Virus record (IMG/VR): IMGVR_UViG_3300033168_000007
Span: 1-30,466 of that record
Source of the DNA: a virus
Lineage: Duplodnaviria > Caudoviricetes
Length of the DNA: 30,466 nucleotides
Direction: 5' to 3' (one strand)
The position numbers were made by a program, and so were the translations under genes. This document shows, piece after piece, positions 126 to 30,396 of this stretch. Positions within the stretch are counted from its first letter, which is position 1. The number at the start of each line of letters is the position of its first letter. The notes under the pieces are model-generated. The model saw nothing but the letters and a program-made list of their open reading frames with translations, ran no database searches and was not told the origin of the DNA.

Positions 126-2077
126 TAGGCGAAACGGTTGCCGGCGTCGAGGCGCCCGTACACAGGGTCGTCGGGGATGAAGTAGGGGTTCTCGTCGGCG
201 GGCGAGAGCTGCACGGCGATGGTGAACACCCCGGAGGCGAAATCGATGGTGTAGGCCAGGTGCTCCACCCAGCACACCCGGCTGCTGATGACCCCCGCCC
301 CCGGGCGCCGGTTGATGGTCACCGCGGTGTTGAGCTCCAACCCCAGCAGCGGAGTCGGCGGCGAGCCCGACGCGGCGAGCATCGCGGCCATGTTCAGGAC
401 CAGCCCCGACACCCGGGGGTCTGCTTCGGAGTACACCTGCGCGAGGTAGGCGGCAGCGTCCACCGCCTGCTGCGCGTCGTACACGTCCAGGGTGAGGTTC
501 AGGGTGCGGGTGCCGTACTTGGCGACCGAGGCCGCCGTGGTGAACTTCGCGACGATCCCGTTGGCTTGGGTGACGGTGACCGTGTTGCCCAGGTGAGTGG
601 TGTCGTGGTCCAACGCCATGTTCTCGTACGGGTACTCCCCGTCGGCTTCCCCGAGGGTGAATCGGGGCGTCGGGTTGTACCGGTAATGGCGGTTCACCAG
701 AATGGGAAACCCATTCCTGCTGACGTACACGGTGCCCGATTCGGTGGTGCCGACGTCGATCATGGCCTGAGCCACCGTCTTGCCGTTCAGGTCGGCGAGG
801 CCCATCGCAGAGTTGCCGGTGTCGGTGTAGGTGGCCGGCCCGCTCGGCAGCGGCGAGTATTTGCGGATCGCCAGGAAGCGGTCCGTGGTGACGTGGCCGT
901 AGTCGGCGTTGCGGTAGGCGTCGCCGATGCCCCCGTACCCGCCGAGGGGGTTGTTCGGGTCGGCGATCAGGTCGGTGCCGAACACCAGGTAGTTGCTCAG
1001 CGTCCCCACAAAGTTGCTGACCGTCGTGGAATTCACCGAGTTGCGGAAGGCGCCGAGGAACACCCGCGAGTACGGCGAACCCGACACGGAGGGCAGGTAG
1101 ACGTTGTTGTCGGTGACAGTGCCGTCGATGCTGACCTTCAGGTGGTACCCGTCCGCCGCGCAGGACAGGGCGATCAGGTGGTCCTGTCCGTCGTCGGGCA
1201 TGGTCGCCATCAGGTAGTAATTGGCGTTATCGGCAACATCGAATACTGCGTAGATCCCGTTGCCCCCGTACCCCGGGCCGTAGTACAGGTGCACCAGCCG
1301 GTCGTGGAACTCCGAGCTGGCGGCCCACAAGCAGCCCCGCGCGGTATTCGCCCCGACGACGGCCTTCATGCCGATCACCACCGTCCACGGCGCCGCCAGC
1401 GGGTGCGCGGCAGTGCCGGGCAGGATCAGGCACGACAGGTTGGAGTACCCCTGAGCGAAGGTCGGCAGCGTGAACTGGGCTTGCGTCTTGCCCTTCACGC
1501 CGGGGGCAGTGGTGGCCACCCCGAGCACGAGGTTGCGGATACCGAAGTCGTAGTTGATGCCCATGTACAGCCCGGCGGCGCGCTCGCCCACCACGAGCTG
1601 CCCTGCGGACACCGAGCCCGGTGCATCGTCGAGTGGGTACCAGGCCAGTGGGTTGAGCAGCTTCACTTCCTCGTAGAAGATCGGCTCGAGGATTTGCTGG
1701 GCCAGCACGGCGAAGATGTCCACCGCCACCAGGTCGGTCCATTGGAAGTTGCCGCCCGGGCCCCACCGTTGCGGGTATCGCTCGACGTATCCCGTCCACA
1801 ACGTGAAAGACGACCCGCCGAGGGTCGCGACCAGTTGGATCCGCTTCCCGAGCTGCACGTTCGGCGCGTACGGGCTGCCTGTGCCGTCCGGGTCCAGGAA
1901 GCCGTTGGAGTTGTCGACGGTGATGGTCAGCGACCCGGCCTGCGGGGCCTGCAGCTCGTACTGACGCCCGCGGGTGGCCGACACCTTGGTCACCCCACCG
2001 ATCGTGGTCCAGGTGCCCGCGACGAACTCGATCTGCACCTGCGTGACCGGCCACGCGTAGCTCGGGGGTGCCACCAT
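122..2077 (-). CDS. Minor tail / baseplate-type protein with a central LamG (concanavalin A)-like beta domain
   Basis: 651 aa directly after the tape measure gene. N-term RGR..EL...QAG.LTITVDN..G.LDP; PLAWYPLDD and FVGTLSNYLVF bracket a LamG-like segment; C-term ASVAKYG.R motif. Confidence 0.8.
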   Translation of the reverse strand: MVAPPSYAWPVTQVQIEFVAGTWTTIGGVTKVSATRGRQYELQAPQAGSLTITVDNSNGFLDPDGTGSPYAPNVQLGKRIQLVATLGGSSFTLWTGYVERYPQRWGPGGNFQWTDLVAVDIFAVLAQQILEPIFYEEVKLLNPLAWYPLDDAPGSVSAGQLVVGERAAGLYMGINYDFGIRNLVLGVATTAPGVKGKTQAQFTLPTFAQGYSNLSCLILPGTAAHPLAAPWTVVIGMKAVVGANTARGCLWAASSEFHDRLVHLYYGPGYGGNGIYAVFDVADNANYYLMATMPDDGQDHLIALSCAADGYHLKVSIDGTVTDNNVYLPSVSGSPYSRVFLGAFRNSVNSTTVSNFVGTLSNYLVFGTDLIADPNNPLGGYGGIGDAYRNADYGHVTTDRFLAIRKYSPLPSGPATYTDTGNSAMGLADLNGKTVAQAMIDVGTTESGTVYVSRNGFPILVNRHYRYNPTPRFTLGEADGEYPYENMALDHDTTHLGNTVTVTQANGIVAKFTTAASVAKYGTRTLNLTLDVYDAQQAVDAAAYLAQVYSEADPRVSGLVLNMAAMLAASGSPPTPLLGLELNTAVTINRRPGAGVISSRVCWVEHLAYTIDFASGVFTIAVQLSPADENPYFIPDDPVYGRLDAGNRFAY

Positions 2078-5000
2078 CAGGAAGCCCTGAAACCGAGCGG
2101 GGTGCGCTGCTGCAGCTTCAGCAACTCGTCCCGGATGTCGGAGGCGGCCTGCGAAGCACCGCCGAACCCGTAGTAGTTGCCGGTGATGTTCACGATGATC
2201 GGCTGCTGCCCACCGCCAGCCATCGTGGCACCGAACGTGGCCCCCGGCCCGCCACCGGCGGAGAACTGGGGGCCGGTGATGGGTCCCGTGACGCTGGCGA
2301 GCGCGGAGGACAACACGCCGCTGTTCGCGAGGATGCCCTGGGCGATGCCCGCGGGGATGTGCACCCCGATCTCGTCGGCGAACACCTTCGAAGGGGAGCT
2401 GATACCCAGCAGGCCCTTGGCACCGTCCAGGGCGGAGCTGGCGACCCCCTTCACGGCGTTGACCATCTGCCCGGCCGCGCCCTTCACGCCGCGGATCATG
2501 CCCATGATCAGGTTGTTGCCGATCTGCTCGGCGGTGCCGAACATACCGACGATGTCATCCATTCCGGCGCGGATCGGCGACCAAATGGCCTGCCGCACAT
2601 TGACGAACTCCCCGGTGATCGCACCCAGCACCCGACCGACCGCGTTCGCCACGGCGCCCACGATGTCGTTCCAGACGCCGACCACATCGTTGTAGGCGGC
2701 GGTCCAGACCCCTCGGGCGATACCGACGATCTCGTTCCACTTGCCGGACAGCCAGCCGGTGGCGGCGCTCCACTTGTCCATGAGCCAGCCCACCGTGCTG
2801 TCCACAATGGCCATTATCGTGTCGTGGATGATGCGCCAGGACAGCTCGGCCGTGGCCTTGATCTGCGACCACTTGGTCTCCAGCCAACCGACCAGCGCGC
2901 CAATCTTGTCGTCCACCCATCGGGCGGCCTCGGTGATCGGGTTGACGATGTAGTCGCGGAGCAGGTTCCACGCCGACTGGGCGGTGCCCGTGATCCAATT
3001 CCAGGTGTCGGACAGGAAGGATTTGACACCATTCCAGACGCCGACGACCACAGCAGTGATCTGCTCATGGAAGTGGTTCCAGATTCCCAGCAGCAAGGCG
3101 ATGGGCGGGGCGAAGATCACCAGCAGCAGCGGCCACCATTTCTGGAAGAACGCCGTGATCCCGTTCCACACGGTAGACGTGATGTCCTCGACCCAATGCC
3201 AGGCGCCGACGACAGGGTCGACCACGGCGTGCCATCCGGTGGCGGTGGCGTGCGTCATGTCGTTCCAGGCGCCCACCAGATAGCCAGTCATGGCGCTCCA
3301 CGCGGAGACCGTCCAGTTCTGCACGTCGTGCCACGCGCCGACCACAGGATCGACCACTGCGTGCACCCCGGTCATCACCGCATGGGTCATGTCGTTCCAC
3401 GCGCCCACCAGGTAGGCGGTGACGGCGTGCCAGATGCTCACCGTCCAGTTCTTCACGTCGTTCCAGGCGCCGAGGATCTGCTGGTTGGCGGCCGTGACCT
3501 GGCCGGTGATCCAGCCCCAGATCTGGTGCCAGTGGGTCCAGAGCTCGTAGATGCCCGCAGACAGCAGCACCACCGCGGCGATGATGGCCTCGATGGTCAG
3601 GGTCACCGGGTTCGTGGCGATGGTCCACAAGGCCACGGACAGGGCGGCAAGCGCCACGATCAGCGCGCCACCGATCACTGCGGCCAGGGCGATCATCGCG
3701 GCCTTGTGCTCGGTCACCCAGGTGATCCCGGTCTTGAAACCCTCGGCCACCTTGGTGACGGTGGGCAGCAGCTCGATGCCGAGCTTGGTGACGAGGGAGC
3801 CGATAGTGTTGTGCAGATCGGTCATCGCCTTGTTGAAGTTGCGCTGCACCTCGTCCCAGCCCTTGATGTTGCCGTCCGCCTGCGCGCTGGACCCGGCGAT
3901 GTCCTTGATCGCGGCGTTCGTCCCAGCGGCGTTCTCGCCGGTGGTCTGCAGCATGACCGAGAGAGCTTCCTGTCCACCGGTCGCCTTTGCCAGCGCGGTG
4001 ACGTAGTTCTGCGAGTCGATGCTTCCGGACTTGATTGCCTGAGAGAATCCCACCGCCTTGTCGTGCAGGGCCGCCCACTGTGACACCTGGGTTCGCTGCT
4101 CCACGTCCAGCCCGGCGCCGGTCTTGCGAAAGTCTTTGTACGCGAGGGTATTGTCGCCGATTGCCTTGGCGACCTTCTGTGCGGCCGGGGGCAGGGCTTC
4201 GAACATCCGACCCGCGTCGTGACCCGCCTGGGTTGACTGGTTCATCGTGTCCAGCAGGACCGTTCCCGATGGTCCCATTTTGGTCAGAATTGCCGTCGAG
4301 ACCTGCTGCAAGGTGGCGGCCAGCCCTGTTTTGCCAGGTTCGTCGCCCAGATTGTTCACCAGGTCTTGCGCTGTAATGCCAACCGCAGCCAATTCCTTGA
4401 TCATGGGTTGCGTCAATCCGCCGCCGGAGAATCGTTGGATGGTGTGCCCCAGGTTTTGCCCGGCCTGGTCTGCACTCATGCCCGAGGCGGTCATCGAGGC
4501 CAGCACGCCGGATACATCGGCAAGGGACAGATGCGCCGCGGCGGCGATGGGGGTCACCGAGTGCATGGCCCCGGTCAGCTCGTCGAAGGTCGTCTTGCCG
4601 TGCGACACCGCGGTAATGAGCTGCGACGTGACGTTCGCGGCCTCGGATGCGGGCATGTGGTAGTCGTGCAGCGCGGTGGTCACCGCGTCGGTGACGTGCC
4701 CCAGGTTGGCCTGCTCCTCAGAAGCACCTTCCCCAGCCATCTTCATGACGTTCAGGGCGTCCGCCCCGTGGAACCCGGCGGATTCCACCGTGTACATGGC
4801 CTTCGCGAGGTCCTGGGCTGAAAACCCCACCTGCCCGGCCATGTTCAAGATGCCGTCGCCGACCATCTTCAGGTTGTCTTGCGACTCACCCGCAGTCGTC
4901 GCGAGCTTGGTCATCGACTGCTGGAAATCGCCTGCCATCTTCACGCCCTCGAAGGCCACCGCGCCGACAGCCGCCACAACGCCCACGGACAGAGCGGTGC

Positions 5001-5133
5001 CGAGCTTGCCGACACCGGCCATCGACGCCTCGGACTCGGCTTTGACGCCCTGCATCTTGGCCATCATCGAGCCGAGCCCGGCATCCAAACCCGCTGTGCC
5101 CGCCATGAACTCGACGAATACGGGGACGCTCAT
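2077..5133 (-). CDS. Tape measure protein (TP901-type core)
   Basis: 1018 aa, Ala-rich. Core with AMY.V.SAG and GKTTFDEL, hydrophobic stretch, Trp-periodic repeats, C-terminal LGISSPSKVF..EIG..IPAGIA.GI. Confidence 0.95.
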   Translation of the reverse strand: MSVPVFVEFMAGTAGLDAGLGSMMAKMQGVKAESEASMAGVGKLGTALSVGVVAAVGAVAFEGVKMAGDFQQSMTKLATTAGESQDNLKMVGDGILNMAGQVGFSAQDLAKAMYTVESAGFHGADALNVMKMAGEGASEEQANLGHVTDAVTTALHDYHMPASEAANVTSQLITAVSHGKTTFDELTGAMHSVTPIAAAAHLSLADVSGVLASMTASGMSADQAGQNLGHTIQRFSGGGLTQPMIKELAAVGITAQDLVNNLGDEPGKTGLAATLQQVSTAILTKMGPSGTVLLDTMNQSTQAGHDAGRMFEALPPAAQKVAKAIGDNTLAYKDFRKTGAGLDVEQRTQVSQWAALHDKAVGFSQAIKSGSIDSQNYVTALAKATGGQEALSVMLQTTGENAAGTNAAIKDIAGSSAQADGNIKGWDEVQRNFNKAMTDLHNTIGSLVTKLGIELLPTVTKVAEGFKTGITWVTEHKAAMIALAAVIGGALIVALAALSVALWTIATNPVTLTIEAIIAAVVLLSAGIYELWTHWHQIWGWITGQVTAANQQILGAWNDVKNWTVSIWHAVTAYLVGAWNDMTHAVMTGVHAVVDPVVGAWHDVQNWTVSAWSAMTGYLVGAWNDMTHATATGWHAVVDPVVGAWHWVEDITSTVWNGITAFFQKWWPLLLVIFAPPIALLLGIWNHFHEQITAVVVGVWNGVKSFLSDTWNWITGTAQSAWNLLRDYIVNPITEAARWVDDKIGALVGWLETKWSQIKATAELSWRIIHDTIMAIVDSTVGWLMDKWSAATGWLSGKWNEIVGIARGVWTAAYNDVVGVWNDIVGAVANAVGRVLGAITGEFVNVRQAIWSPIRAGMDDIVGMFGTAEQIGNNLIMGMIRGVKGAAGQMVNAVKGVASSALDGAKGLLGISSPSKVFADEIGVHIPAGIAQGILANSGVLSSALASVTGPITGPQFSAGGGPGATFGATMAGGGQQPIIVNITGNYYGFGGASQAASDIRDELLKLQQRTPLGFRAS
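3208..3471 (-). repeat. Tandem 132-bp (44-aa) duplication within the tape measure gene
   Basis: GAWNDVKNWTVSIWHAVTAYLVGAWNDMTHAVMTGVHAVVDPVV followed by GAWHDVQNWTVSAWSAMTGYLVGAWNDMTHATATGWHAVVDPVV. Confidence 0.9.
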
Positions 5134-5506: not shown

Positions 5507-5742
5507 CTACCCCCTCGAGGCTTCCTCGTTGCGCCGGTTCTCCTCGGCGATGTACACGGCATGGACGGTGAGCAGCTCGGACAGCTCGCGGGCGGGCAGT
5601 TCCGCCTGCTCCCTCAGGGACACCCCCAGCAGCAGCAGCGCGCGGCGGCGGACGCTGCGGTGCACCCAGTACGGCAGATCACGGGCGTCGATCTGGTGGC
5701 CCTCCAGGGACTGCCTCAGACGCTGGAGGGCACCGAAGGGGT
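5507..5742 (-). CDS. Frameshift extension of the tail assembly chaperone (gpGT, T part)
   Basis: The -1 frame reads DPFGALQRLRQSLEGHQIDARDLPYW...EEASRG*, has no evident start of its own and fills the gap to the next gene. Candidate slip site ACC CCT TC at 5735-5742. Confidence 0.7.
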
Positions 5743-6150
5743 CGCCATGTCCGGGGTCGGCTCGGTGTTCACCGTGGTCCCACCGGTGGCCTTGACGACC
5801 TCCCCGATCTTGTCGGAGATCGTCTTGGTGACGGGTGCGGGCACCTCGGCGAACGCTTCCCGGGTGGGCGGTTGGGGCACGCCCTCGTACTCCCACTCGG
5901 TGACGTAGGCGCACACCGTGACGTACATCAGCTCGCGGAACGCCTGGAAGCCCTCCACTCCCACGATTCGCATCTGCTGCACCGGGGGAAGCGCCTGGAA
6001 CTCCTCCGACTTCGATTCGTCGGTGAGGTGCTCGCCGGCCTTGGTGGCCATGAGGCTGATCTGCACGTCCTCGATGGACTCTGAGAGCCGCCCGGGCAGT
6101 TTGCGGGGGTCGCGAATGTTCGCCCACCCGCCGTCGAACTCGACGCGCAT
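5716..6150 (-). CDS. Tail assembly chaperone (gpG-like)
   Basis: 144-aa acidic ORF directly after the tail tube gene, followed by an overlapping -1 frame ORF. Confidence 0.8.
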   Translation of the reverse strand: MRVEFDGGWANIRDPRKLPGRLSESIEDVQISLMATKAGEHLTDESKSEEFQALPPVQQMRIVGVEGFQAFRELMYVTVCAYVTEWEYEGVPQPPTREAFAEVPAPVTKTISDKIGEVVKATGGTTVNTEPTPDMATPSVPSSV

Positions 6151-13315: not shown

Positions 13316-14782
13316 TCACCACACGGACGCCGCAACGTCTTTGACCTCGGCCGCTTTCACCGAGTACCCCCACAGTGCGAGCGTCACCGAAACCAACGGG
13401 GTGATGTCCACTCCGCTGGTGTAATCCCACGCCCACGCACCGGCCATCGACTTGGTTGTCGCCCGGCCCACCGCAACAGTGAGAGGCTGCTGGTCGATGT
13501 GCCACAGCCTGTGGCCCATCACCGCGTCATAGAGGGCGCCGCAGCCCTGCACCACCGCCGTCGTCCCCGGTTGCATGGCTTCGATCCCCACCGCCGCGAG
13601 GTCCGGCAGCAACGATCCTGCGGGCGAGCCCGGGCGGATCACGATGCCCAGCGGGTTCCACGCCGCCTTCCGCTCCACCAGCCACGGGACCACCCACGAC
13701 GAGTCGGTGTTCGGCCGGTACTCGACGACCTCCACGTGATAGGCGCCGTCCTCGCGGAGCCCCGCCACCGAAATGGCTGTGGTCGAGCGGTCGCCCGTCA
13801 TGTCCACGGCGAACACCATGCGGCTGTGCAGACGGCTGTCCAGATCGCTCTGCGCGTTCCAGTCGTTGGCCGAAATTGCCACCTCGACCGTGGCGGGCGG
13901 GCGCCAGATCCCCAGACGCTCCCGGCGGAAGCGGTCCTCGGTCATGCCCGGGCGCTCTACGAGCTGGATGAAGTCCAGCCCCAGCCGGCCGCACTCGATC
14001 CCCGGGTTCGAGGCGAGCAGCACTGCCTCGTCGTCGCTGTCCGCGTCGTCCGGTGCCGACCACTCCCGGTACATCAGCCGCGGCTCATTGCCAGCGATGC
14101 CACGCTCTCGGATGGCGGCCAGCTGCTCGGAGGAGTCCATGCCGGCGGAAGACACATACCAAACCTGCGGGTTGCTCACCGCGCTCAGCGTGGGCAGCAG
14201 GTCGGCGATCATGTCCGGGTCGAGGTCGTACGCCTCGTCGAAGATCATGGTGTCCCCGGTGAAACCACGACCCGATCCACCGGAGCGCGCAAAGAAGTTC
14301 AGCCGCTCACCGGTGAGCAGCTCGATGCCGGTCTCCTCGTTGCTCTGCCGGTACAGACCGCCAACCGGCGTGCCCGAGGTGTCGTGCTTACCGCCGGTCA
14401 GCTTGTGGAGTTCGGGGGTCTGGCGCACCAACTGCTTGATGCGGCGAAACATCGTCTTGGAAGTCTTGAACTGGTGGGCCGAGTAGATCGACTGCGCATC
14501 CCTCGTCAAGAACAAGGACGTGAGCTGTCGGGCCTCAATGATGGCCCCCTTGCCGCACTGCCGCGGGACGACCAGCCCGACTTCCAGCGCCGCCCACTTG
14601 CCGCCGACCCGCCGGTTCAGCGAGTCCCGCAGGACGTCCGCTTGCCAAGGGTCCAGGTGCAGCCCTGCGTAGTCGGCAAGGTCGACGGCGTCACCGCCGA
14701 GGGAGCCGTCGAAGAACGGCGGGGTACTAGCGAGCCGAGGTGTCCGACTGCCGGTCGGCCTGGCGAGCAGCGAGCTTGTCAA
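13316..14782 (-). CDS. terL: Terminase large subunit
   Basis: Walker A VPRQCGKG, Walker B MIFDEA, SNP, FRRERLGIW, nuclease FAVDM, DITPLVS. Start reassigned to TTG 14782 (GGAGG RBS). Confidence 0.95.
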   Translation of the reverse strand: MTSSLLARPTGSRTPRLASTPPFFDGSLGGDAVDLADYAGLHLDPWQADVLRDSLNRRVGGKWAALEVGLVVPRQCGKGAIIEARQLTSLFLTRDAQSIYSAHQFKTSKTMFRRIKQLVRQTPELHKLTGGKHDTSGTPVGGLYRQSNEETGIELLTGERLNFFARSGGSGRGFTGDTMIFDEAYDLDPDMIADLLPTLSAVSNPQVWYVSSAGMDSSEQLAAIRERGIAGNEPRLMYREWSAPDDADSDDEAVLLASNPGIECGRLGLDFIQLVERPGMTEDRFRRERLGIWRPPATVEVAISANDWNAQSDLDSRLHSRMVFAVDMTGDRSTTAISVAGLREDGAYHVEVVEYRPNTDSSWVVPWLVERKAAWNPLGIVIRPGSPAGSLLPDLAAVGIEAMQPGTTAVVQGCGALYDAVMGHRLWHIDQQPLTVAVGRATTKSMAGAWAWDYTSGVDITPLVSVTLALWGYSVKAAEVKDVAASVW

Positions 14783-15137
14783 GGAAAGTGCCTCCGCCCT
14801 CTGCTGTGATGGTCGAGCCCAGTTTCGCGGTGCCCAGGTGGGCGAAGATGGTGCGCAGCGCCAGCGCCTGCTGCCGGGACTCCGACAGCGCACCGTCCAT
14901 CACGATCGACACGTCCTGGCCCTCGACCTGCTCGGCCAACTTCACCCACTCGGTACGCCGGCTGCGCAGGATCCCGTCGAGCTTCTCCAGCCGGTCCACG
15001 ATCCGACACGCTTCGGCGACAAGCACCGCGGTGGCGGGATCGAAGCTGCGGCCATCCGACAGCTCGGTCCACAACGCCTTACCGCGGGCGCTGAGACGAG
15101 CCGGTCTGAGCAGCGGTGAGGAAGTATGCACAACCAC
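14727..15137 (-). CDS. terS: Terminase small subunit
   Basis: LSARGKALW...LVAEACRIVDRLEKLD...ALSESRQQ..ALR; overlaps the terL start. Exact start uncertain. Confidence 0.85.
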   Translation of the reverse strand: MVVHTSSPLLRPARLSARGKALWTELSDGRSFDPATAVLVAEACRIVDRLEKLDGILRSRRTEWVKLAEQVEGQDVSIVMDGALSESRQQALALRTIFAHLGTAKLGSTITAEGGGTFLDKLAARQADRQSDTSAR

Positions 15138-15139
15138 CC

Positions 15140-15456
15140 CCGTTTTATGCAGTCTGACCTGCGGTTCTGCGCGTTCCAGGGCAGTCTTGGCCGGTTTGGA
15201 ATGTGCTGGGGAGAGAAACGAGGCTGCTGCGTGCGGTCACAGCGCCGTCGCGTACCAAAAAACCAAACCGATGGCCAGTCCGGTCAACTTGACCGCTGCT
15301 CTGGATATTTATGCATGGAACGCGATGGTCAAGTTGTCGGGTACCCGGCTGGCTGGCGGGTGCCGGTGGCAGGTGCCGGGTGGTTGGTCTGGTTGGTCGC
15401 CGTGCCTTGCCTACCTGCCTGTCGGTCAGCGCCCGTGTCTGTCCGACAGCGCGTGC
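15140..15456. other. Candidate packaging (cos-type) region between HNH and terS
   Basis: Intergenic region in the HNH-terS arrangement. Contains palindrome CGGTCAA-C-TTGACCG (15281-15295), an A-tract (15257-15267) and GGGGAGAGAAA. Confidence 0.5.
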
Positions 15457-15780
15457 CTACCACCGCCTGCTGGTGAGCAGGGGTGCCGCGGGTGTCCGCT
15501 TGGCTGCCCTGAGTGTGTGGCCGTAGGTGGCACCAGCGGAGCGGTTGCAGTGCCGGTGCTCCAGCGCGTCGGGCAGGGCATCACCACCGCGTGCCCGCTC
15601 CTGGCCGTCAGCGTGCCCACCGTCGAGGGTGGCAGCGTCCCACATGGGGTAGCCGCATCGTCGGCATGGTGTTCCTGGTAGGTGCCTGTCCTTGAGCTCG
15701 GCTACCCGCTGGCGGTGTGGCCAGCCGAGGCCACGCTGGGTGGTGGTGCGGGTGTAGGTGGTGCGGCGCCTGCCTGCCAT
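15457..15780 (-). CDS. Packaging-associated HNH endonuclease (HK97 gp74-like position)
   Basis: RGLGWPH..., CRRCG, LDGGH, LEHRHCNRSAGA; immediately upstream of terS. Confidence 0.85.
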   Translation of the reverse strand: MAGRRRTTYTRTTTQRGLGWPHRQRVAELKDRHLPGTPCRRCGYPMWDAATLDGGHADGQERARGGDALPDALEHRHCNRSAGATYGHTLRAAKRTPAAPLLTSRRW

Positions 15781-15920
15781 GGGGGTTTCCGCCTTGGTGG
15801 GTTCAGGGTTCGGCCTTGGTGGTTTGGCGGTTCTCGGGTTGGCTGGCTCGCGGGCTGGCTTCCAAGTGGCTTGGTGCCCGCTCAGTCCGCTAACCCCCCC
15901 GGGTGGTTGTCAGATTTGAG

Positions 15921-16250
15921 CTAGACCTCTGGTTGTGGGATGCCGTTGTGGTCGCGGATGCTGCGCCGGAACAGGTGCTGTTTCGCGTGCTCCACCGAGA
16001 CGGCCGCGTGCACGTCTTCGACCGCTGCCCTGTTGCGTTTCGTGGAGGCGCCGAGGATGGACAGCAGCACGAGCTGCAGGAATACCGTCGATCCCCACAG
16101 CGCGTACTTCTGAGCCGTGTCGGGCAGTAGGCCGGGGAATCCGCCCACGAACGCGAGGACGGCGAATACATACGCGGTGGTCATCGTTCCCACCGCGTCG
16201 GATACCTTCGCGGCTGCCCGCTCGTTGAAGCGGGTGTAGGCGTTGCTCAC
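15921..16250 (-). CDS. Membrane protein (recalls DUF1003-like proteins)
   Basis: FNERAA.KVSDAVGTM..AYVFAVLA and W.STVFLQLVLLSIL; two hydrophobic helices. Confidence 0.7.
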   Translation of the reverse strand: MSNAYTRFNERAAAKVSDAVGTMTTAYVFAVLAFVGGFPGLLPDTAQKYALWGSTVFLQLVLLSILGASTKRNRAAVEDVHAAVSVEHAKQHLFRRSIRDHNGIPQPEV

Positions 16251-16252
16251 CG

Positions 16253-16450
16253 CTAGTGCCCCTTGTGCCTGTGGTTGCCGTGATTACCGCCCCGACGGTG
16301 GTGCGGCGCGTGGTGCACATGAGCTCCGTGGCTGACGTGATGCACGTGGGCACCCTTGTGCGCGTGGTGCTTGCCGCGCCGTGCCGCGGACATGTGCTCG
16401 CGGGCCACAGCGGAGAACACGACCCCCTTGTGGCCCCCACCTCTAGGCAT
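16253..16450 (-). CDS. Small basic His-rich protein
   Basis: 65 aa, 18 His; coupled to the upstream gene by TAATG. Confidence 0.7.
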   Translation of the reverse strand: MPRGGGHKGVVFSAVAREHMSAARRGKHHAHKGAHVHHVSHGAHVHHAPHHRRGGNHGNHRHKGH

Positions 16451-16605
16451 TAGAGACCCCCTACGACGCTCATCAGTACGTACCCAAACGCAACCATCGC
16501 CGTAAGGATTCCTATTACCGCCGCTAGGAACATGAGGAGATGGACGCCAATGTCGCTATCCGATTCGTAGTCCAGCGGTGGCCAGTCGTCCGGTAGCGGC
16601 CGCAC
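16450..16605 (-). CDS. Small single-pass membrane protein (not in ORF track)
   Basis: MRPLPDDWPPLDYESDSDIGVHLLMFLAAVIGILTAMVAFGYVLMSVVGGL* (51 aa); its stop overlaps the next ATG. Confidence 0.65.
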   Translation of the reverse strand: MRPLPDDWPPLDYESDSDIGVHLLMFLAAVIGILTAMVAFGYVLMSVVGGL

Positions 16606-16620
16606 TGAGGGGTCAGCGCC

Positions 16621-17181
16621 TTACTGGGTAGCAGGTGGTGCCGATGGCACCTGCGGCGGTGCTGACTGCGACGGCGGGGTGGTTGCGCCACCGATGCCAC
16701 CGTTGACGGCCGGTGCTTGCTGTACCGGTGCGGGGGCCTCGCCTGATGCCGGTGGTTGCACCGGGGCGCCGTTGACGTCGGTGGCCACTGGTGTGGTCGC
16801 TGCGGCGCCGGGTTGCGCCGGGTTGGCCGCTGGTGCCTGTGCTGGCTGCGCGGGAGTACCGGCGGGCTGCTGCGCCGGTGCAGGCGGTGCAGCAACGGGA
16901 GGCGCTGCAGGAGCGGCAACGTCGCCCCGAACGCGGGAAACCACGGCGTCGAGTTTGCTCAGGTCGAGCTGCGCGGCGGCGGGCTGTGCTTTCAGTGCGG
17001 CCACTTCCGCTTCGATGGCCGACAGCCCATCGTTGATAGCTGAGGTGTCGGCGTTGATCTGGCCTTGCTCGTCCATGATTGCCTCCAGTATGAAGATGAT
17101 CGCGATCGCCCAGTCGGGCAGTTCTGTTGCTCGGTGCTCACGCCAGTCGATGACGGTGGCCCAGTGGTCGTCGAGGTCCAT
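16621..17181 (-). CDS. Coiled-coil protein with long Pro/Ala/Gln-rich tail
   Basis: Start reassigned to ATG 17181 (TGATG coupling, GGAG upstream); 186 aa. Confidence 0.75.
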   Translation of the reverse strand: MDLDDHWATVIDWREHRATELPDWAIAIIFILEAIMDEQGQINADTSAINDGLSAIEAEVAALKAQPAAAQLDLSKLDAVVSRVRGDVAAPAAPPVAAPPAPAQQPAGTPAQPAQAPAANPAQPGAAATTPVATDVNGAPVQPPASGEAPAPVQQAPAVNGGIGGATTPPSQSAPPQVPSAPPATQ

Positions 17182-17447
17182 CACACCCACTCCGCGTCGT
17201 AGCAGTCGCGCGATGGGTCGTAGCCGGTGATCCGGTAGACCCACACTCCGTTGTCGGCTTGCAGCCGAATCAGGTCGTCTGTGACCGTCAGGTAGTCGTA
17301 GAAGGCGGATTCGAGACACTCGCGGGCAAAGACGGCGCGTGGCGGCGCGTCCATGACTTCCAGCCGGTCGTATCCATCGCCGTTCCATCCAACGCTGCGC
17401 AACGTGACCGCTCCAGCGCAGTTGGTACCTCGCAGGCCAGCGCTCAC
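17181..17447 (-). CDS. Hypothetical phage protein
   Basis: 88 aa, coupled at both ends; ADNGVWVYRITGYD motif. Confidence 0.8.
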   Translation of the reverse strand: MSAGLRGTNCAGAVTLRSVGWNGDGYDRLEVMDAPPRAVFARECLESAFYDYLTVTDDLIRLQADNGVWVYRITGYDPSRDCYDAEWV

Positions 17448-17605
17448 GGTTGCTCCCTATCTGGAGGTGGGATTTCGGTGTCAGCCCCGAGGGCCGCCGA
17501 CTTCAGCACGGCCAGAGCGTCGGCGCCGCGCATCCCCGCCGACCTCACCTCGTACATCGCCTTCGCGAGGTCTTGTGCGGGCCCGCCGACCTGCCTGAGA
17601 TCCAT
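17444..17605 (-). CDS. 53-aa mini-protein homologous to tape measure residues 101-137 (not in ORF track)
   Basis: MDLRQVGGPAQDLAKAMYEVRSAGMRGADALAVLKSAALGADTEIPPPDREQP*; GAGGAG RBS; TGATG and GTGA coupling. Confidence 0.85.
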   Translation of the reverse strand: MDLRQVGGPAQDLAKAMYEVRSAGMRGADALAVLKSAALGADTEIPPPDREQP

Positions 17606-17772
17606 CACGCCTTCTCCTCGCGTAGTGCCCGCTGCGCGAGGAGTCGGTCGATCTTGTGGTCCTGCTCGTCGTAGGCGGTGAAGCTGCCCAGATCCAAGGC
17701 GATGGCGCGCTGCTCCACCGCCCGGGCGATCTCGATGTCGAGCTCAGGCAGTGTGAGTCTGCGGTCCAGCAT
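17605..17772 (-). CDS. Hypothetical helical protein
   Basis: MLDRRLTLPELDIEIA...KIDRLLAQRALREEKA, 55 aa, GGAGG RBS, coupled. Confidence 0.75.
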   Translation of the reverse strand: MLDRRLTLPELDIEIARAVEQRAIALDLGSFTAYDEQDHKIDRLLAQRALREEKA

Positions 17773-18053
17773 CACGGCCTCCCTCGGATCAGGTCGAGGA
17801 CGGCCTGCGCGTCGAACCACTCGCGGTGCCGCCGCTCGGCGTGCCACTGCTGATGACAGATGGCCCTCTCGGCTTCTTCCGTGGTCGGCAGGTGCACCAG
17901 GACATACCCGGCCGCGGCGAGGTCGGCGATCACGACAATCGCGTAGGAGTCGCCCGGGCGGAGCATCAGGGCTTGGGCAAGCGCATCGGCAGCGTCCATG
18001 GAGCGACCTCGATGAGGAGTGTGGAGGATCGCAGGCTCAGGAGGTTGGGTCAC
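17772..18053 (-). CDS. Hypothetical protein
   Basis: 93-aa ORF directly below the tandem TTGACA element; start uncertain (alternative ATG at MDAADA). Confidence 0.7.
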   Translation of the reverse strand: MTQPPEPAILHTPHRGRSMDAADALAQALMLRPGDSYAIVVIADLAAAGYVLVHLPTTEEAERAICHQQWHAERRHREWFDAQAVLDLIRGRP

Positions 18054-18061
18054 CTCAACCG

Positions 18062-18104
18062 ACCTACAAAGCGCAGCGTCTCACTTGTCAACTCTGCATG
18101 TCAA
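18062..18104 (-). promoter_or_regulatory. Candidate late promoter with two TTGACA hexamers
   Basis: TGTCAA on + at 18086-18091 and 18099-18104 in a 59-bp intergenic gap; no consensus -10. Confidence 0.5.
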
Positions 18105-18112
18105 GTCGAGGG

Positions 18113-18670
18113 CTACGGTCGGCGCGCCCGCCTGCGCGAGAGGGTGACGCCGTCGTCAGTCCATGGGTTGTTCATCGTGTACCTAATGTCGCGCTGGCCC
18201 AGGTCTTCGAGCGTGACCCTGATGACGGTCGTTGACACCACGTCGGGCAACTCTGGTTCCTCGCGAGTCTCCGCTTGCCAGTCGTGACTCGCTACCCACT
18301 GGTCCAGATGGAATCGCTCGAACTCCAGAGGGTCGCAATTCGATGCGAGAGACTCAGCAGCAAGCCGAGACCTTGCCAGAGACTCAGCAAGCCGAGACCA
18401 TGATTCAGCGAACTGCTGCGCCATCTGCCCGTCCGCCTGTGCGATAGCAGTGAATGCCTCGACGACGACAGTCGGCCGGAGCGGCCCCTCGGTATCCGAG
18501 CCAGGACAGACCAAGGTGGGCAGCCCGTGCCAGTTCAGCCCACAGCGGCACTCGGGGAAGTCGGGGTCATCGAAGTCGTAGCCGTTCCGGGGCTCGCCGG
18601 CGCGAATCTGCTCGTCGATCAGGGCGTCGATCTCGTCGATGACCCGCTGCGCAGTGCTCACTTTGGTCAT
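18113..18670 (-). CDS. Hypothetical phage protein (N-terminal Cys/His motif, internal repeat, terminase-like peptide)
   Basis: VIDEIDALIDEQ...CRCGLNWHGLP..CPGS; duplicated SRLAESLA / SRLAAESLA (18348-18399). Confidence 0.75.
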   Translation of the reverse strand: MTKVSTAQRVIDEIDALIDEQIRAGEPRNGYDFDDPDFPECRCGLNWHGLPTLVCPGSDTEGPLRPTVVVEAFTAIAQADGQMAQQFAESWSRLAESLARSRLAAESLASNCDPLEFERFHLDQWVASHDWQAETREEPELPDVVSTTVIRVTLEDLGQRDIRYTMNNPWTDDGVTLSRRRARRP

Positions 18671-18674
18671 CGTC

Positions 18675-19655
18675 TCACTTTCTCACTGATTGGCGGTAGA
18701 TGGTTCGATGCTTGGGCCGGGGTGCCTTGTCGAGCAGCGCGAGCACGTCGCCAAGACGGAACAGGGGCGGGTCATCGCGGTGCAGCCAGTGGTCGGTGAT
18801 CTGCTCGCCGTGTTGCCAGGCTCGGGGGGTGAGCTGGCCGCGTTGCCGCCAGGTGCGCCAGGTGCTGTCAGGGATGCGCTGGCCTTTGTAGGCGTGCACG
18901 GCACCCATGGCTTCCTCGCGGGTGCACAGCGCGTCGGAGGTTTGCTCCAGCAGCAACCTGCTCACATCTCGCGCGTCGTAGGTGGCGGAGCAGTACGAGC
19001 AGCGCAGTGTGTCCACCCCGCGGTCGATGTACAGGTCGTGCCCGCACGCCTTGCAGGGCCCGGCGTAGACGAGGTCTCGGCGGTCGACGGCCATGCGCGC
19101 TGAGGCGATGACGTCGGTGATGGTGTCGTATGCCTCGACCGCGGCCGGCAATGACCGTAGGGCTTGGGGTTGGCGCGAGAGCCACAGGGCGCACACCTCG
19201 GCGGAAGTGACGGGCAGCAGGGACAGCTCGGCAGGGTGGCGCAGCACGGTGACGGTTTCGCCGGTGATGATCTTGCCGTGCGAGATCCGGTCGGGTTGGG
19301 TGCGCTCGTACGTCTCGCCGCGCTCGTCGAGCACCAGGCGTTGCAGCACGCTGACGACGATGGCAATGTGCTCGTGCTCGGCGACCACGCGGGCCCAGGT
19401 GGTGAGCGTGTTACCGAGGGCGTCGAGGCGGCGGGTGATGTCGGTGCGCATCGGCAATGGTGCCTCGCTGCTGCGGCCGCCGTTGCGCCCGGAGCTCATC
19501 CGGTCGAGGCGGGCGGTGGCGACGGCCAGGTCGGCGACGACACCGGGCACGGCGCGCAGCTCCTTCACGAGCGTCGCGGTGCACGAGGTGCACAGGGGCA
19601 GGTTGTCGCCGCTGGGGTGGCCGCAGTCGGCTTGGTAGGTCAAGTGCTTAGCCAC
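18675..19655 (-). CDS. Zn-finger plus C-terminal HTH protein, putative late transcription regulator
   Basis: LC..C, GPC..CG.DLY, C..C, RTWRQRGQL, PLFRLGDVL; last large gene of the early operon. Confidence 0.7.
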   Translation of the reverse strand: MAKHLTYQADCGHPSGDNLPLCTSCTATLVKELRAVPGVVADLAVATARLDRMSSGRNGGRSSEAPLPMRTDITRRLDALGNTLTTWARVVAEHEHIAIVVSVLQRLVLDERGETYERTQPDRISHGKIITGETVTVLRHPAELSLLPVTSAEVCALWLSRQPQALRSLPAAVEAYDTITDVIASARMAVDRRDLVYAGPCKACGHDLYIDRGVDTLRCSYCSATYDARDVSRLLLEQTSDALCTREEAMGAVHAYKGQRIPDSTWRTWRQRGQLTPRAWQHGEQITDHWLHRDDPPLFRLGDVLALLDKAPRPKHRTIYRQSVRK

Positions 19656-19788
19656 CTGCGGAGACCTCTTGTGGCCACGGGGTCAGCGCCCGGACGCTTA
19701 CCGGCGCCCAGCGGATCAGCACGCCGGGTTGCTCGCCGATGGCGGCAGTGCGCTTGGCTGCGAGCAGCTCGGTCACAGTGCACATCAT
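19648..19788 (-). pseudogene. Displaced second copy of the rusA 3' end (46-aa ORF, not in ORF track)
   Basis: MMCTVTELLAAKRTAAIGEQPGVLIRWAPVSVRALTPWPQEVSAGG*; 17/23 identical to the RusA C-terminus. Confidence 0.85.
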
Positions 19789-20330
19789 GCCGACCATCGG
19801 CCCATGTGGTCACGCGCGCGAATCAGTGACCGATCCAGTCGGCGGTGGCATGGGCGACACCGGGGCGAGTAGTCCGCAGGATTGGCTGAATACGCGAGCG
19901 TTTCGCCCTTCCGGGTCGTCGTTGCCAACTCTTCCGAACTTGAGCCGTCGTATGACCACTCATCGGCCCGAGATCCGCAATCGGCGCAGATGTGCCCGAT
20001 CGCCCTTCCGCGTTCCCTTGATACGCGCTTGTGCGCCCCGTCGTATGACGGCCGCTCCAAGCGCTTGCGTCCGGGGTGTCGAGGACCAACAACATTCGGG
20101 TCGCCCGATTTCTTAACTCTTGCGGCGTGCATGGAGCACCAGCCCTGCGCGTGATGGGGCCTACCGCATTCATCGGCCCTGCAACCGATGTGCTGGGGAC
20201 GGCATTGCGGAGGCAATGGCGCAAGGTAGTTCGGATTACCATGCTTGCGCCAACGAAGCCAGTGCGTTGAGCACCAGCCGCGCCCAGCCGAGGGCTTCTC
20301 GCACCCGTTGATCGAGCAAGGCTTTCTCAT
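19785..20330 (-). CDS. HNH-like (His-Me) endonuclease with two N-terminal C-x4-C...WC-x2-H Zn fingers; probably mobile
   Basis: CSINGC...RGWCSTHW, CRADEC...QGWCSMH, SY.GAH.RV...RG.A..H.C.DCG...EWSYD, Y.PRC..CHRR.D; ATGA coupling to rusA. Confidence 0.8.
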   Translation of the reverse strand: MRKPCSINGCEKPSAGRGWCSTHWLRWRKHGNPNYLAPLPPQCRPQHIGCRADECGRPHHAQGWCSMHAARVKKSGDPNVVGPRHPGRKRLERPSYDGAHKRVSRERGRAIGHICADCGSRADEWSYDGSSSEELATTTRKGETLAYSANPADYSPRCRPCHRRLDRSLIRARDHMGRWSA

Positions 20331-29385: not shown

Positions 29386-29676
29386 TCATGAGGCCCGCTT
29401 GGCGCGCTGGGCATCCATCGCCGCCTCGCGGCACTGGGTGCACCGGCAACCCCAGTGCGTGTAGGCGCCCGTGGTGCCGTGCACAGCCAGCGGATGCACC
29501 AGCCGACCGGCGATCAGTTCCCGCCCGGCGAGGCGCCGCGCCTGTTCCCGCCGCTGTTTCGCGGTGCGTTCCGCCGCGCACTCGTCACAGCGGCAGCGGT
29601 GCTCGCTCAGCACGCTCTTCTCGGCGCTCATCGGGGCCATGTTCGGCGGAAGATCGAACGGCTGGTAGGCACTCAT
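29386..29676 (-). CDS. Zn-binding protein with HGT..AY..WGCRC..C motif
   Basis: 96 aa, ATGA-coupled to cro; two CRC..C motifs. Confidence 0.75.
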   Translation of the reverse strand: MSAYQPFDLPPNMAPMSAEKSVLSEHRCRCDECAAERTAKQRREQARRLAGRELIAGRLVHPLAVHGTTGAYTHWGCRCTQCREAAMDAQRAKRAS

Positions 29677-29900
29677 GCTGCGACCACTTCGGACGGCATG
29701 AGGTCCGACAGCGGCACGTTGAGGCGTTGGGCAATCGCTGTCAGTTCGTTGATGTTGAACGGCGTACGCCCACGAAGGCGCGCCGACACTGATGCTTGGT
29801 TGGTGCCGAGGTGTTCGGCCAACTGGGTCTGGCTGATGCCTGCGTACGCCAAGGCGGCGCGGACTTTCCTGCCGACCTCCGCGCTGGGTGTAGTAGTCAC
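29673..29900 (-). CDS. Cro-like XRE-family HTH protein
   Basis: 75 aa, ISQTQLAEHLGTNQASVSARLRG.TPF; divergent from the repressor. Confidence 0.9.
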   Translation of the reverse strand: MTTTPSAEVGRKVRAALAYAGISQTQLAEHLGTNQASVSARLRGRTPFNINELTAIAQRLNVPLSDLMPSEVVAA

Positions 29901-29906
29901 GACTCA

Positions 29907-29936
29907 GTTCTAGTGCATTGGCCGCTAGTGTGTCAA
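29907..29936 (-). promoter_or_regulatory. Early lytic promoter, probably leaderless
   Basis: TTGACA (29936-29931), 18 bp, TAGAAC, 6 bp, then the GTG of cro. Confidence 0.65.
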
Positions 29937-29977
29937 GCACTGAGAGCTAGTTAGGTAGCTGTCATTAGTGGCTCATG

Positions 29978-30006
29978 TTGTAATCGCTGCTGAGAGGCTC
30001 TAGCAT
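29978..30006 (+). promoter_or_regulatory. Repressor promoter, probably leaderless
   Basis: TTGTAA (29978-29983), 17 bp, TAGCAT (30001-30006), 6 bp, ATG 30013; no RBS. Confidence 0.75.
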
Positions 30007-30012
30007 CACCGC

Positions 30013-30396
30013 ATGACCGCTGTTATCGAGTTCCCGCGACGCACGCCGCTACGTACGGCCGTCGCCGCAGAAGTGCGCGCGCTGATGGGCCGCTACAACG
30101 TGAACCAGACGAAACTGGCCGACGTCCTCGGCGTCACGCAGACGCAAGTGAGCAAGCGTCTGCGTGGGCTGATTCCCTTCGACGTCGACGAGCTGGACGT
30201 CATGGCCGGTTACTTTCGCGTTTCTGTGACCGAGCTAGTAGGGGGGCCTGCAAACAGTCCTCGACCGGGAGGCCCGACCGAGGGTGTTGAGGACGCAGCG
30301 TCGAGCGCCGCCGAAGGTGGGCCCCGTCAGATTCGAACTGACGACCTGCGGATTAAAAGTCAGCGGAAAGACGTCACCGACGATGCTAAGGAGTAA
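30013..30396 (+). CDS. Immunity repressor (XRE HTH) with an att core in its 3' end
   Basis: VAAEVRALMGRYNVNQTKLADVLGVTQTQVSKRLRG.IPF; the C-terminal part is encoded by antisense tRNA sequence. Confidence 0.88.
   Translation: MTAVIEFPRRTPLRTAVAAEVRALMGRYNVNQTKLADVLGVTQTQVSKRLRGLIPFDVDELDVMAGYFRVSVTELVGGPANSPRPGGPTEGVEDAASSAAEGGPRQIRTDDLRIKSQRKDVTDDAKE
30316..30361 (-). other. 3' half of tRNA-Lys(UUU): phage attachment site core
   Basis: Minus strand reads GA CTTTTAA TCCGC AGGTC GTCAG TTCGAAT CTGAC GGGGCCC A CC (anticodon loop, variable loop, perfect T arm, acceptor 3' strand). No matching D arm or 5' acceptor strand. Confidence 0.9.

Follow-up and report, generated by a model that had tools for sequence, protein, structure and literature searches.

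The question that this locus raises is why a phage should keep, 12.3 kb upstream of its tape measure protein (TMP) gene and among accessory genes, a small gene whose product resembles a piece of the TMP core. The stretch of DNA analysed (the window) is a virus record of 30,466 bp with a GC content of 66% and a CheckV completeness of 64%. It encodes an HK97-type head, a tail tube, the TMP, RecT/YqaJ, and a divergent HTH pair at its right end (29673-30396). The capsid matched mycobacteriophages only (61 records, best 35-38%) and because of this the host is presumably an actinobacterium; the phage looks temperate from the HTH pair and RecT/YqaJ. The features needed to compare the small gene, which we call the mini-gene, with the TMP are as follows.

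2077..5133, minus strand: TMP gene, 1018 aa, with a TP901-type core (PF10145, TIGR01760).
4723..4833, minus strand: the homologous TMP segment (residues 101-137), with predicted helices 106-118 and 123-139, in the most conserved block of the core.
17444..17605, minus strand: the mini-gene, 53 aa plus TGA, with a 4-residue leader, a TMP-derived hairpin and a Pro-rich tail.
17483..17593, minus strand: the TMP-derived module, 37 codons, a predicted helix-turn-helix hairpin (H9-23/H27-38) with E19-V20-R21 fixed in the family.
17614..17619, minus strand: GAGGAG ribosome-binding site (RBS), within the upstream gene and 8 nt 5' of the ATG of the mini-gene.

The preliminary description of this DNA took the mini-gene for a stand-alone copy of part of the phage's own TMP, and its alignment was reproduced: 17593-17483 aligns to 4833-4723 without gaps, 26 of the 37 residues are identical, and 13 of these 26 are encoded by different, synonymous codons. 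The RBS, the overlap with both neighbours, and the distance of about 12.7 kb from the TMP (12.76 kb from module to TMP segment) were likewise recovered from the sequence. The stop codon of the upstream gene overlaps the ATG of the mini-gene (TGATG) and the stop codon of the mini-gene overlaps the next GTG (GTGA), while the last codons of the Pro-rich tail contain an RBS-like sequence of that next gene. At the nucleotide level 75 of 111 positions are identical, with 9, 8, and 19 mismatches at codon positions 1, 2, and 3, respectively, and this similarity ends abruptly on both sides. In a tblastn search inside the window the match between mini-gene and TMP had an E value of 2e-12 and the runner-up 0.24. 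Positions 5-47 of PF10145 (PhageMin_Tail) match the mini-protein with E 6e-4, at 20.3 bits and thus below the curated cut-off of 33.2; the TMP family phrog_2723 matches it with E 1e-7, and the NCBIfam profiles gave no match. By cut-off and architecture the mini-protein is outside the TP901-type TMP family, and its homology to the conserved core holds. AlphaFold2 gave a hairpin (H9-23/H27-38) for the mini-protein with a pLDDT of about 90 and disordered ends, and for TMP residues 55-260 a compact domain of helices (pLDDT 92, pTM 0.85), where the copied unit consists of helices 106-118 and 123-139. From these models the predicted fold of the mini-protein is the hairpin that TMP residues 106-139 form.

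The claim that the mini-gene is maintained and is not debris stood up well. All of the nine distinct DNA copies are in frame, with no frameshifted copy among them, and translational coupling is kept though the neighbours change. The codon-model omega was about 0.15 for the nine copies (CI 0.08-0.25) and 0.11 for the seven free copies, and omega=1 was rejected (2dL = 41), in tests made on 32 codons of closely related and recombining genomes. In the same phages omega was 0.11 for the small terminase, the HTH gene, and the TMP segment, 0.3 for HNH, and 0.03-0.25 for other mini-genes. When open frames were simulated under neutrality, each of 8 settings was run 1500 times and no run reached the observed pN/pS values (0.25, 0.20). 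Selection acting on another frame was considered and rejected: the +1 frame has 2-3 stops in all nine copies, the antisense frame that shares third positions is open in all nine but carries the weaker signal (2dL 17 vs 38), and the RBS, the coupling, and the gene order favour the called frame.

The mini-gene is not restricted to the window. A search of short proteins with the mini-protein returned nine candidates, all nine at 75-100% identity (26 sequences when cluster members are included), and a profile search, with 34 of 1093 candidates returned, uncovered a second architecture, in which an N-terminal hydrophobic anchor is followed by the same module and a short basic tail. Among 76 distinct short sequences that were fetched the module is present in 75, the remaining one being an unrelated cluster member; by regular expression 43 of these 75 homologues are anchored and 32 are not. 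A scan of 1.84 billion representatives gave 119 matches. Besides the free and the anchored form these include one distant protein of 55 aa (P0082), and the others are mostly whole TMPs or parts of them. The locus search for P0082 led to five loci, every one a TMP. In cultured phages 33 of 50,697 records match the mini-protein, all inside TMP genes and none stand-alone; with P0082 as the query these records gave no match and with P0146 they gave 8 weak matches. None of 496 candidate stretches from GTDB genomes came through in the mini-gene search, and with the anchored-form alignment one of three GTDB candidates encodes a relative. Since the matches in the full scan are otherwise mostly TMPs or parts of TMPs, the family is restricted to a narrow group of uncultured phages. 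There are leads to recurrence, though not proof of it, in the ESM Atlas, where viral clusters of 62-71 aa have a score of 0.97 and in one cluster 41% of the members carry PF10145, and in two PHROGs without an assigned function, both short like the mini-protein, phrog_12553 (60 aa) and phrog_33100 (109 aa), with weak matches to the mini-protein (E 2e-4) or to the same TMP segment (E 0.023 and 0.0015). These two may be independent mini-genes or split TMP genes. Short proteins that correspond to other regions of the TMP core were also looked for, in a search of low sensitivity, and none of 47 candidates was retained. In open-licence papers and preprints we found no description of a stand-alone TMP-fragment gene, and within that literature the mini-gene is a real, selected gene family that has not been described.

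Where the preliminary description went too far was in calling the mini-gene a copy of the phage's own TMP. After two sequences had been dropped for a truncation or an indel, we compared 49 short ones with 122 TMP segments, the window's own included. The short sequences form one clade with a support of 0.94 and one spurious intruder, and all 49 carry E-V-R at the positions equivalent to TMP 115-117 (74 of 76 over all short sequences). Position 117 is E in 107 of the 122 TMP segments and R in not a single one, and the net charge of the module has gone from -2 in the TMP to +1 in the mini-protein; most positions that are conserved in TMPs nevertheless stay conserved. The TMP nearest to the mini-protein is another phage's: over a 30-aa core, 10 of the 122 TMP segments match it at least as well as its own TMP does, and in the anchored-form phage G001 the module is identical to its own TMP at 14 of 30 positions and to other TMPs at 14-18 of 30. 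A recent duplication of the own TMP is ruled out by the 75/111 nucleotide identity, the single clade, and the equally good matches to other TMPs.

The window's TMP is a divergent allele over residues 27-470 (3720-5050, minus strand), with about 46-86% identity per block to three close relatives (L045-L047), whereas most C-half blocks are 80-100% identical in the same comparison. The N-half of the TMP, which holds the core sensed by defences, is thus exchanged between relatives as alleles while the mini-gene stays put and the mini-proteins remain alike, so that tracking of the cognate TMP, which the preliminary description put forward for testing, was not borne out. The mini-gene is a single old capture from a TP901-type TMP of the window's subfamily and not a running copy of the cognate TMP. 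Between the alleles the 101-137 segment has 26 of 37 identities against 17-32 in other N-half blocks, which is no local diversification. In a set of eight TMPs (the window's and seven found through the TMP C-half, the mini-gene never being used as query) blocks 100-145 have the highest conservation in the core, 0.64-0.65 against 0.43-0.60 elsewhere. Between the tail tube gene and the TMP gene, at 5507-6150 (minus strand), there is a 144-aa ORF (5716-6150) with an overlapping downstream frame, a pair that is consistent with a frameshifted tail assembly chaperone.

The mini-gene is dispensable, because two records (G002 and G009) lack the module although their TMP belongs to the same subfamily and the slot is there. 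When the tail of the anchored form was used as a motif, there were nine pattern matches, four of them unrelated, and in three of the five related records of the same scaffold gene the module was absent. The third module-less record (L031:2168-2365) has a 65-aa ORF with the anchored-form tail and, instead of the module, the C-terminal GGxLxPG motif of TMPs; this ORF is 50% identical to P0108 over 36 aa (E 2e-8) and matches 6 of 112 TMPs at E<1e-3. It is a second TMP piece captured at the same slot. Scaffold genes without the module at L066:2851-3018 and L070:1417-1578 have an in-frame junction at a short shared sequence and are either the pre-insertion state or the result of precise loss. Two related small ORFs (L030:10314-10505 and L013:5774-5950; 52% to each other over 42 aa) resemble the part of long TMPs that immediately precedes their C-terminal motif, and at E values of only 0.005-0.02 they were left out of the count of TMP pieces. 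We take the TMP stretch that they resemble to be the end of a transglycosylase-like domain.

When would the mini-protein be made? The features around it that bear on this are the following.

14727-15137 (small terminase) and 15457-15780 (HNH), minus strand: these genes open the morphogenesis module downstream of the mini-gene cluster.
17181..17447, minus strand: downstream coupled small gene, 88 aa, no family; relatives have other genes instead.
17605..17775, minus strand: small gene coupled on the upstream side, 56 aa, without a family; its omega is about 0.08, and 5 of the 7 free-form loci have it.
18086..18104, minus strand: tandem TTGACA motif, a candidate late-promoter element.
18675..19655, minus strand: DNA-binding protein with an HTH, 37% to gp65 of Rhodococcus phage Sleepyhead; by position a candidate late regulator.

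In all seven free-form loci (the window, L007, L008, L011, L013, L014, and L017) the mini-gene is in a cluster of coupled mini-genes 3' of the HTH DNA-binding gene, and where the contig extends that far HNH and terminase come after the cluster; neighbours are swapped between these loci and the packaging module of L013 differs. All seven free-form loci have a TTGACA/T motif upstream of the module, at a distance of 374-1424 bp, and in five of them it is in tandem. The two anchored-form records have no such motif within 2.6 kb, and a scan for the sigma-70 consensus over 15000-19000 of the window found no full promoter. Since the mini-gene is on the same strand as the genes from terminase to tail, lies upstream of them, and shares the TTGACA layout, it is likely part of a late operon and produced ahead of the TMP.

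Several other genes in this region deserve mention. The strongest constraint in the cluster is on a 65-aa His/Gly/Lys-rich ORF without a family (16253-16450, minus strand; omega about 0.03), which is near-identical in five phages and has analogous His-rich repeat ORFs in L013 and L030. Kept 3' of the mini-gene is a protein with a short coiled-coil and then a long Pro/Ala/Gln-rich tail (16621-17180, minus strand), the N-termini of which vary among relatives. Just past an HNH gene a 49-aa ORF (19648-19797, minus strand) duplicates the RusA C-terminus (56% over 34 aa) and is a probable relic of homing or recombination. A two-gene insert lies ahead of the terminase region at L027:11402-13191 and L070:2841-4507; by motifs judged by eye, one of its proteins is presumably phosphatidylserine-decarboxylase-like and the other amidinotransferase-like. 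The ORF at L027:833-2110 contains a long repeat of low complexity, and a frame that overlaps it gives Leu-Ser-Met-Pro repeats.

A possible explanation for a selected yet optional mini-gene, and the one that we favour at somewhat less than an even chance, is that its product is a counter-defence decoy which is recognised by TMP-sensing defences, for example an Avs18-like one, and does not activate them. SeAvs18 is reported to be triggered by the most conserved, helical segment of about 130 aa in the TMP, residues 62-196 of Mu being necessary and sufficient, and also by the TMP of P2 but not by those of lambda, T5, and T4 (PMC13581612). The TMP is also reported as the target of SNIPE (bioRxiv 10.1101/2025.11.03.685801), Tab (PMC10884400), Rta (PMC12987554), and gp45 of mycobacteriophage NBJ (bioRxiv 10.64898/2025.12.12.693979), and by analogy any of these or Avs18 would be a plausible target of a decoy. 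The mini-protein would be produced in the early part of the late phase, ahead of the TMP that is encoded 12.7 kb downstream, and it would bind either a host sensor (an Avs18-like STAND protein) or a prophage-encoded TMP blocker; with only part of the recognised surface, and with the fixed T115E/E117R swap, it might bind without activating, and the membrane-anchored forms would act in the same way at the membrane. A precedent for the timing is the anti-Tab gene of Pseudomonas phage JBD26, a small counter-defence gene among the terminase genes of the late operon whose placement is reported to serve timing (PMC10884400).

Does the module lie in the part of the TMP that is sensed? The core of the window's TMP is homologous to that of P2 (hhalign 94.5%), which shares the PF10145 core. 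When Pfam TMP_3 was used as a bridge, Mu residues 105-192 corresponded to profile positions 21-112 and window residues 66-218 to positions 6-143, which puts the module at about 26-77 and inside the Mu epitope (up to 112), at a score of 27.3 that is below the cut-off of 41; direct alignment to the Mu epitope with hhalign was not significant and in another register (probability 1.2%). The module thus probably overlaps the Avs18 epitope, on a mapping that is weak. The decoy reading also draws on an omega like that of the small terminase with none of the 1500 neutral runs matching it, on a hairpin that corresponds to two helices of the most conserved TMP block, and on the different TMP piece in the same slot of L031. 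Against it, the module has 37 aa and the epitope, which Avs sensors reportedly envelop, about 135, so that it is too short for a trigger of about 130 residues. The evidence on Avs18 concerns a Salmonella sensor and, in the parts of that report drawn on here, enterobacteria only, the reported Tab determinant is the TMP C-terminus and not the TMP core (PMC10884400), and the TMP segment lacks local diversification between alleles. The change to R at a position that is E in most TMPs could equally mean that mimicry was lost.

This last point leads to the reading that the hairpin was captured once and now serves a function unrelated to the TMP, for example binding of a host protein through its E-V-R face, which we consider unlikely. 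The fixed E-V-R (74 of 76 short sequences, with R at this site in 0 of 122 TMPs) and the reversal of charge are what such a co-option would leave, the locus is a mosaic of shuffled mini-genes, and neighbouring small genes without a link to the TMP are equally selected (omega 0.03-0.3). The retention of most TMP-conserved positions does not fit with it, and a second TMP piece in the same slot is less well explained by chance capture. About as improbable is that the hairpin, expressed from a prophage or during co-infection, binds the TMP core or the tail assembly chaperone of competing phages and as a dominant-negative poisons their tail assembly or DNA entry. A temperate phage, the classing of G001 as a provirus, mini-proteins that are no nearer to their own TMP than to those of other phages, the membrane anchor in about 43 of 75 homologues, and the reported targeting of the TMP in phage-phage conflict by Tab, Rta, and gp45 all suit this interference. 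However, the slot ahead of the terminase implies co-expression with the phage's own tail proteins with no evident immunity partner, self-poisoning would be expected with the phage's own TMP subfamily ranking among the best matches, and the sigma-70 scan of 15000-19000 found no lysogen promoter. We think it very unlikely that the mini-protein helps or regulates tail assembly in its own phage by buffering the chaperone or shielding the nascent TMP: the late-operon position upstream of the tail genes and the shared predicted fold agree with it, but the mini-protein does not track the cognate TMP allele, G002 and G009 do without the module, and the cultured-phage records that match, 33 in all, contain it nowhere but in the TMP gene. 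Recombination debris kept open as a mere translational-coupling spacer, as the partial RusA duplication in the same genome, the three of five scaffold genes without the module, and two disruptive-looking changes in the G003 copy might suggest, is largely refuted by the neutral simulations (0/1500), the rejection of omega=1 (2dL = 41), and the stops or weaker signal in other frames, and we give it hardly any credence.

The decoy reading can be carried a step further, into a possibility that we hold doubtful: that trigger-derived decoys are a general device in which the charge-swapped TMP hairpin blocks an Avs18-like sensor and a swappable late-operon slot fields different TMP pieces, the core hairpin or the C-terminal motif, free or anchored, against different TMP-recognising defences. 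The TMP has lately been recognised, according to the reports on Avs18, SNIPE, Tab, Rta, and gp45, as the target of several defences, and its conserved core leaves phages little mutational room. If true, making decoys from the trigger would be a simple and general route of counter-defence that is predictable from sequence, by looking for pieces of core virion proteins that stand alone and are under selection. If instead the poisoning of rival tails is true, the mini-gene would serve phages that compete with one another as a minimal weapon of the dominant-negative kind. On either reading, 37 codons of an essential structural gene have given rise to a new gene.

Among known systems the nearest by homology is the TP901-type TMP core, with which the mini-protein shares profile positions 5-47 and the predicted helical hairpin. 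It differs in having 37 of about 200 core positions, in being free-standing outside the tail module, and in the fixed T115E/E117R, and it cannot serve as a tail ruler. Avs18 is a host sensor and not a gene like the mini-gene, the module of which probably lies inside the equivalent epitope region; the passages of that report considered here name no Avs18 inhibitor (PMC13581612). Tab and anti-Tab, Rta, NBJ gp45, and SNIPE, compared by their descriptions, all act on the TMP, and in the portions of those reports used here none is described as a TMP fragment. The closest in proposed logic is DSAD1, which is reported to inhibit DSR2 by occupying the site for the tail tube protein (PMC11087589). Like a DSAD1-type inhibitor the mini-gene is a small, non-essential phage gene under selection, and by analogy its product would likewise sit at a sensor's site for a tail protein without activating the sensor. 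DSAD1, however, is not described in the cited part of that report as a copy of the tail tube trigger (PMC11087589), whereas the candidate mini-protein descends from the trigger itself.
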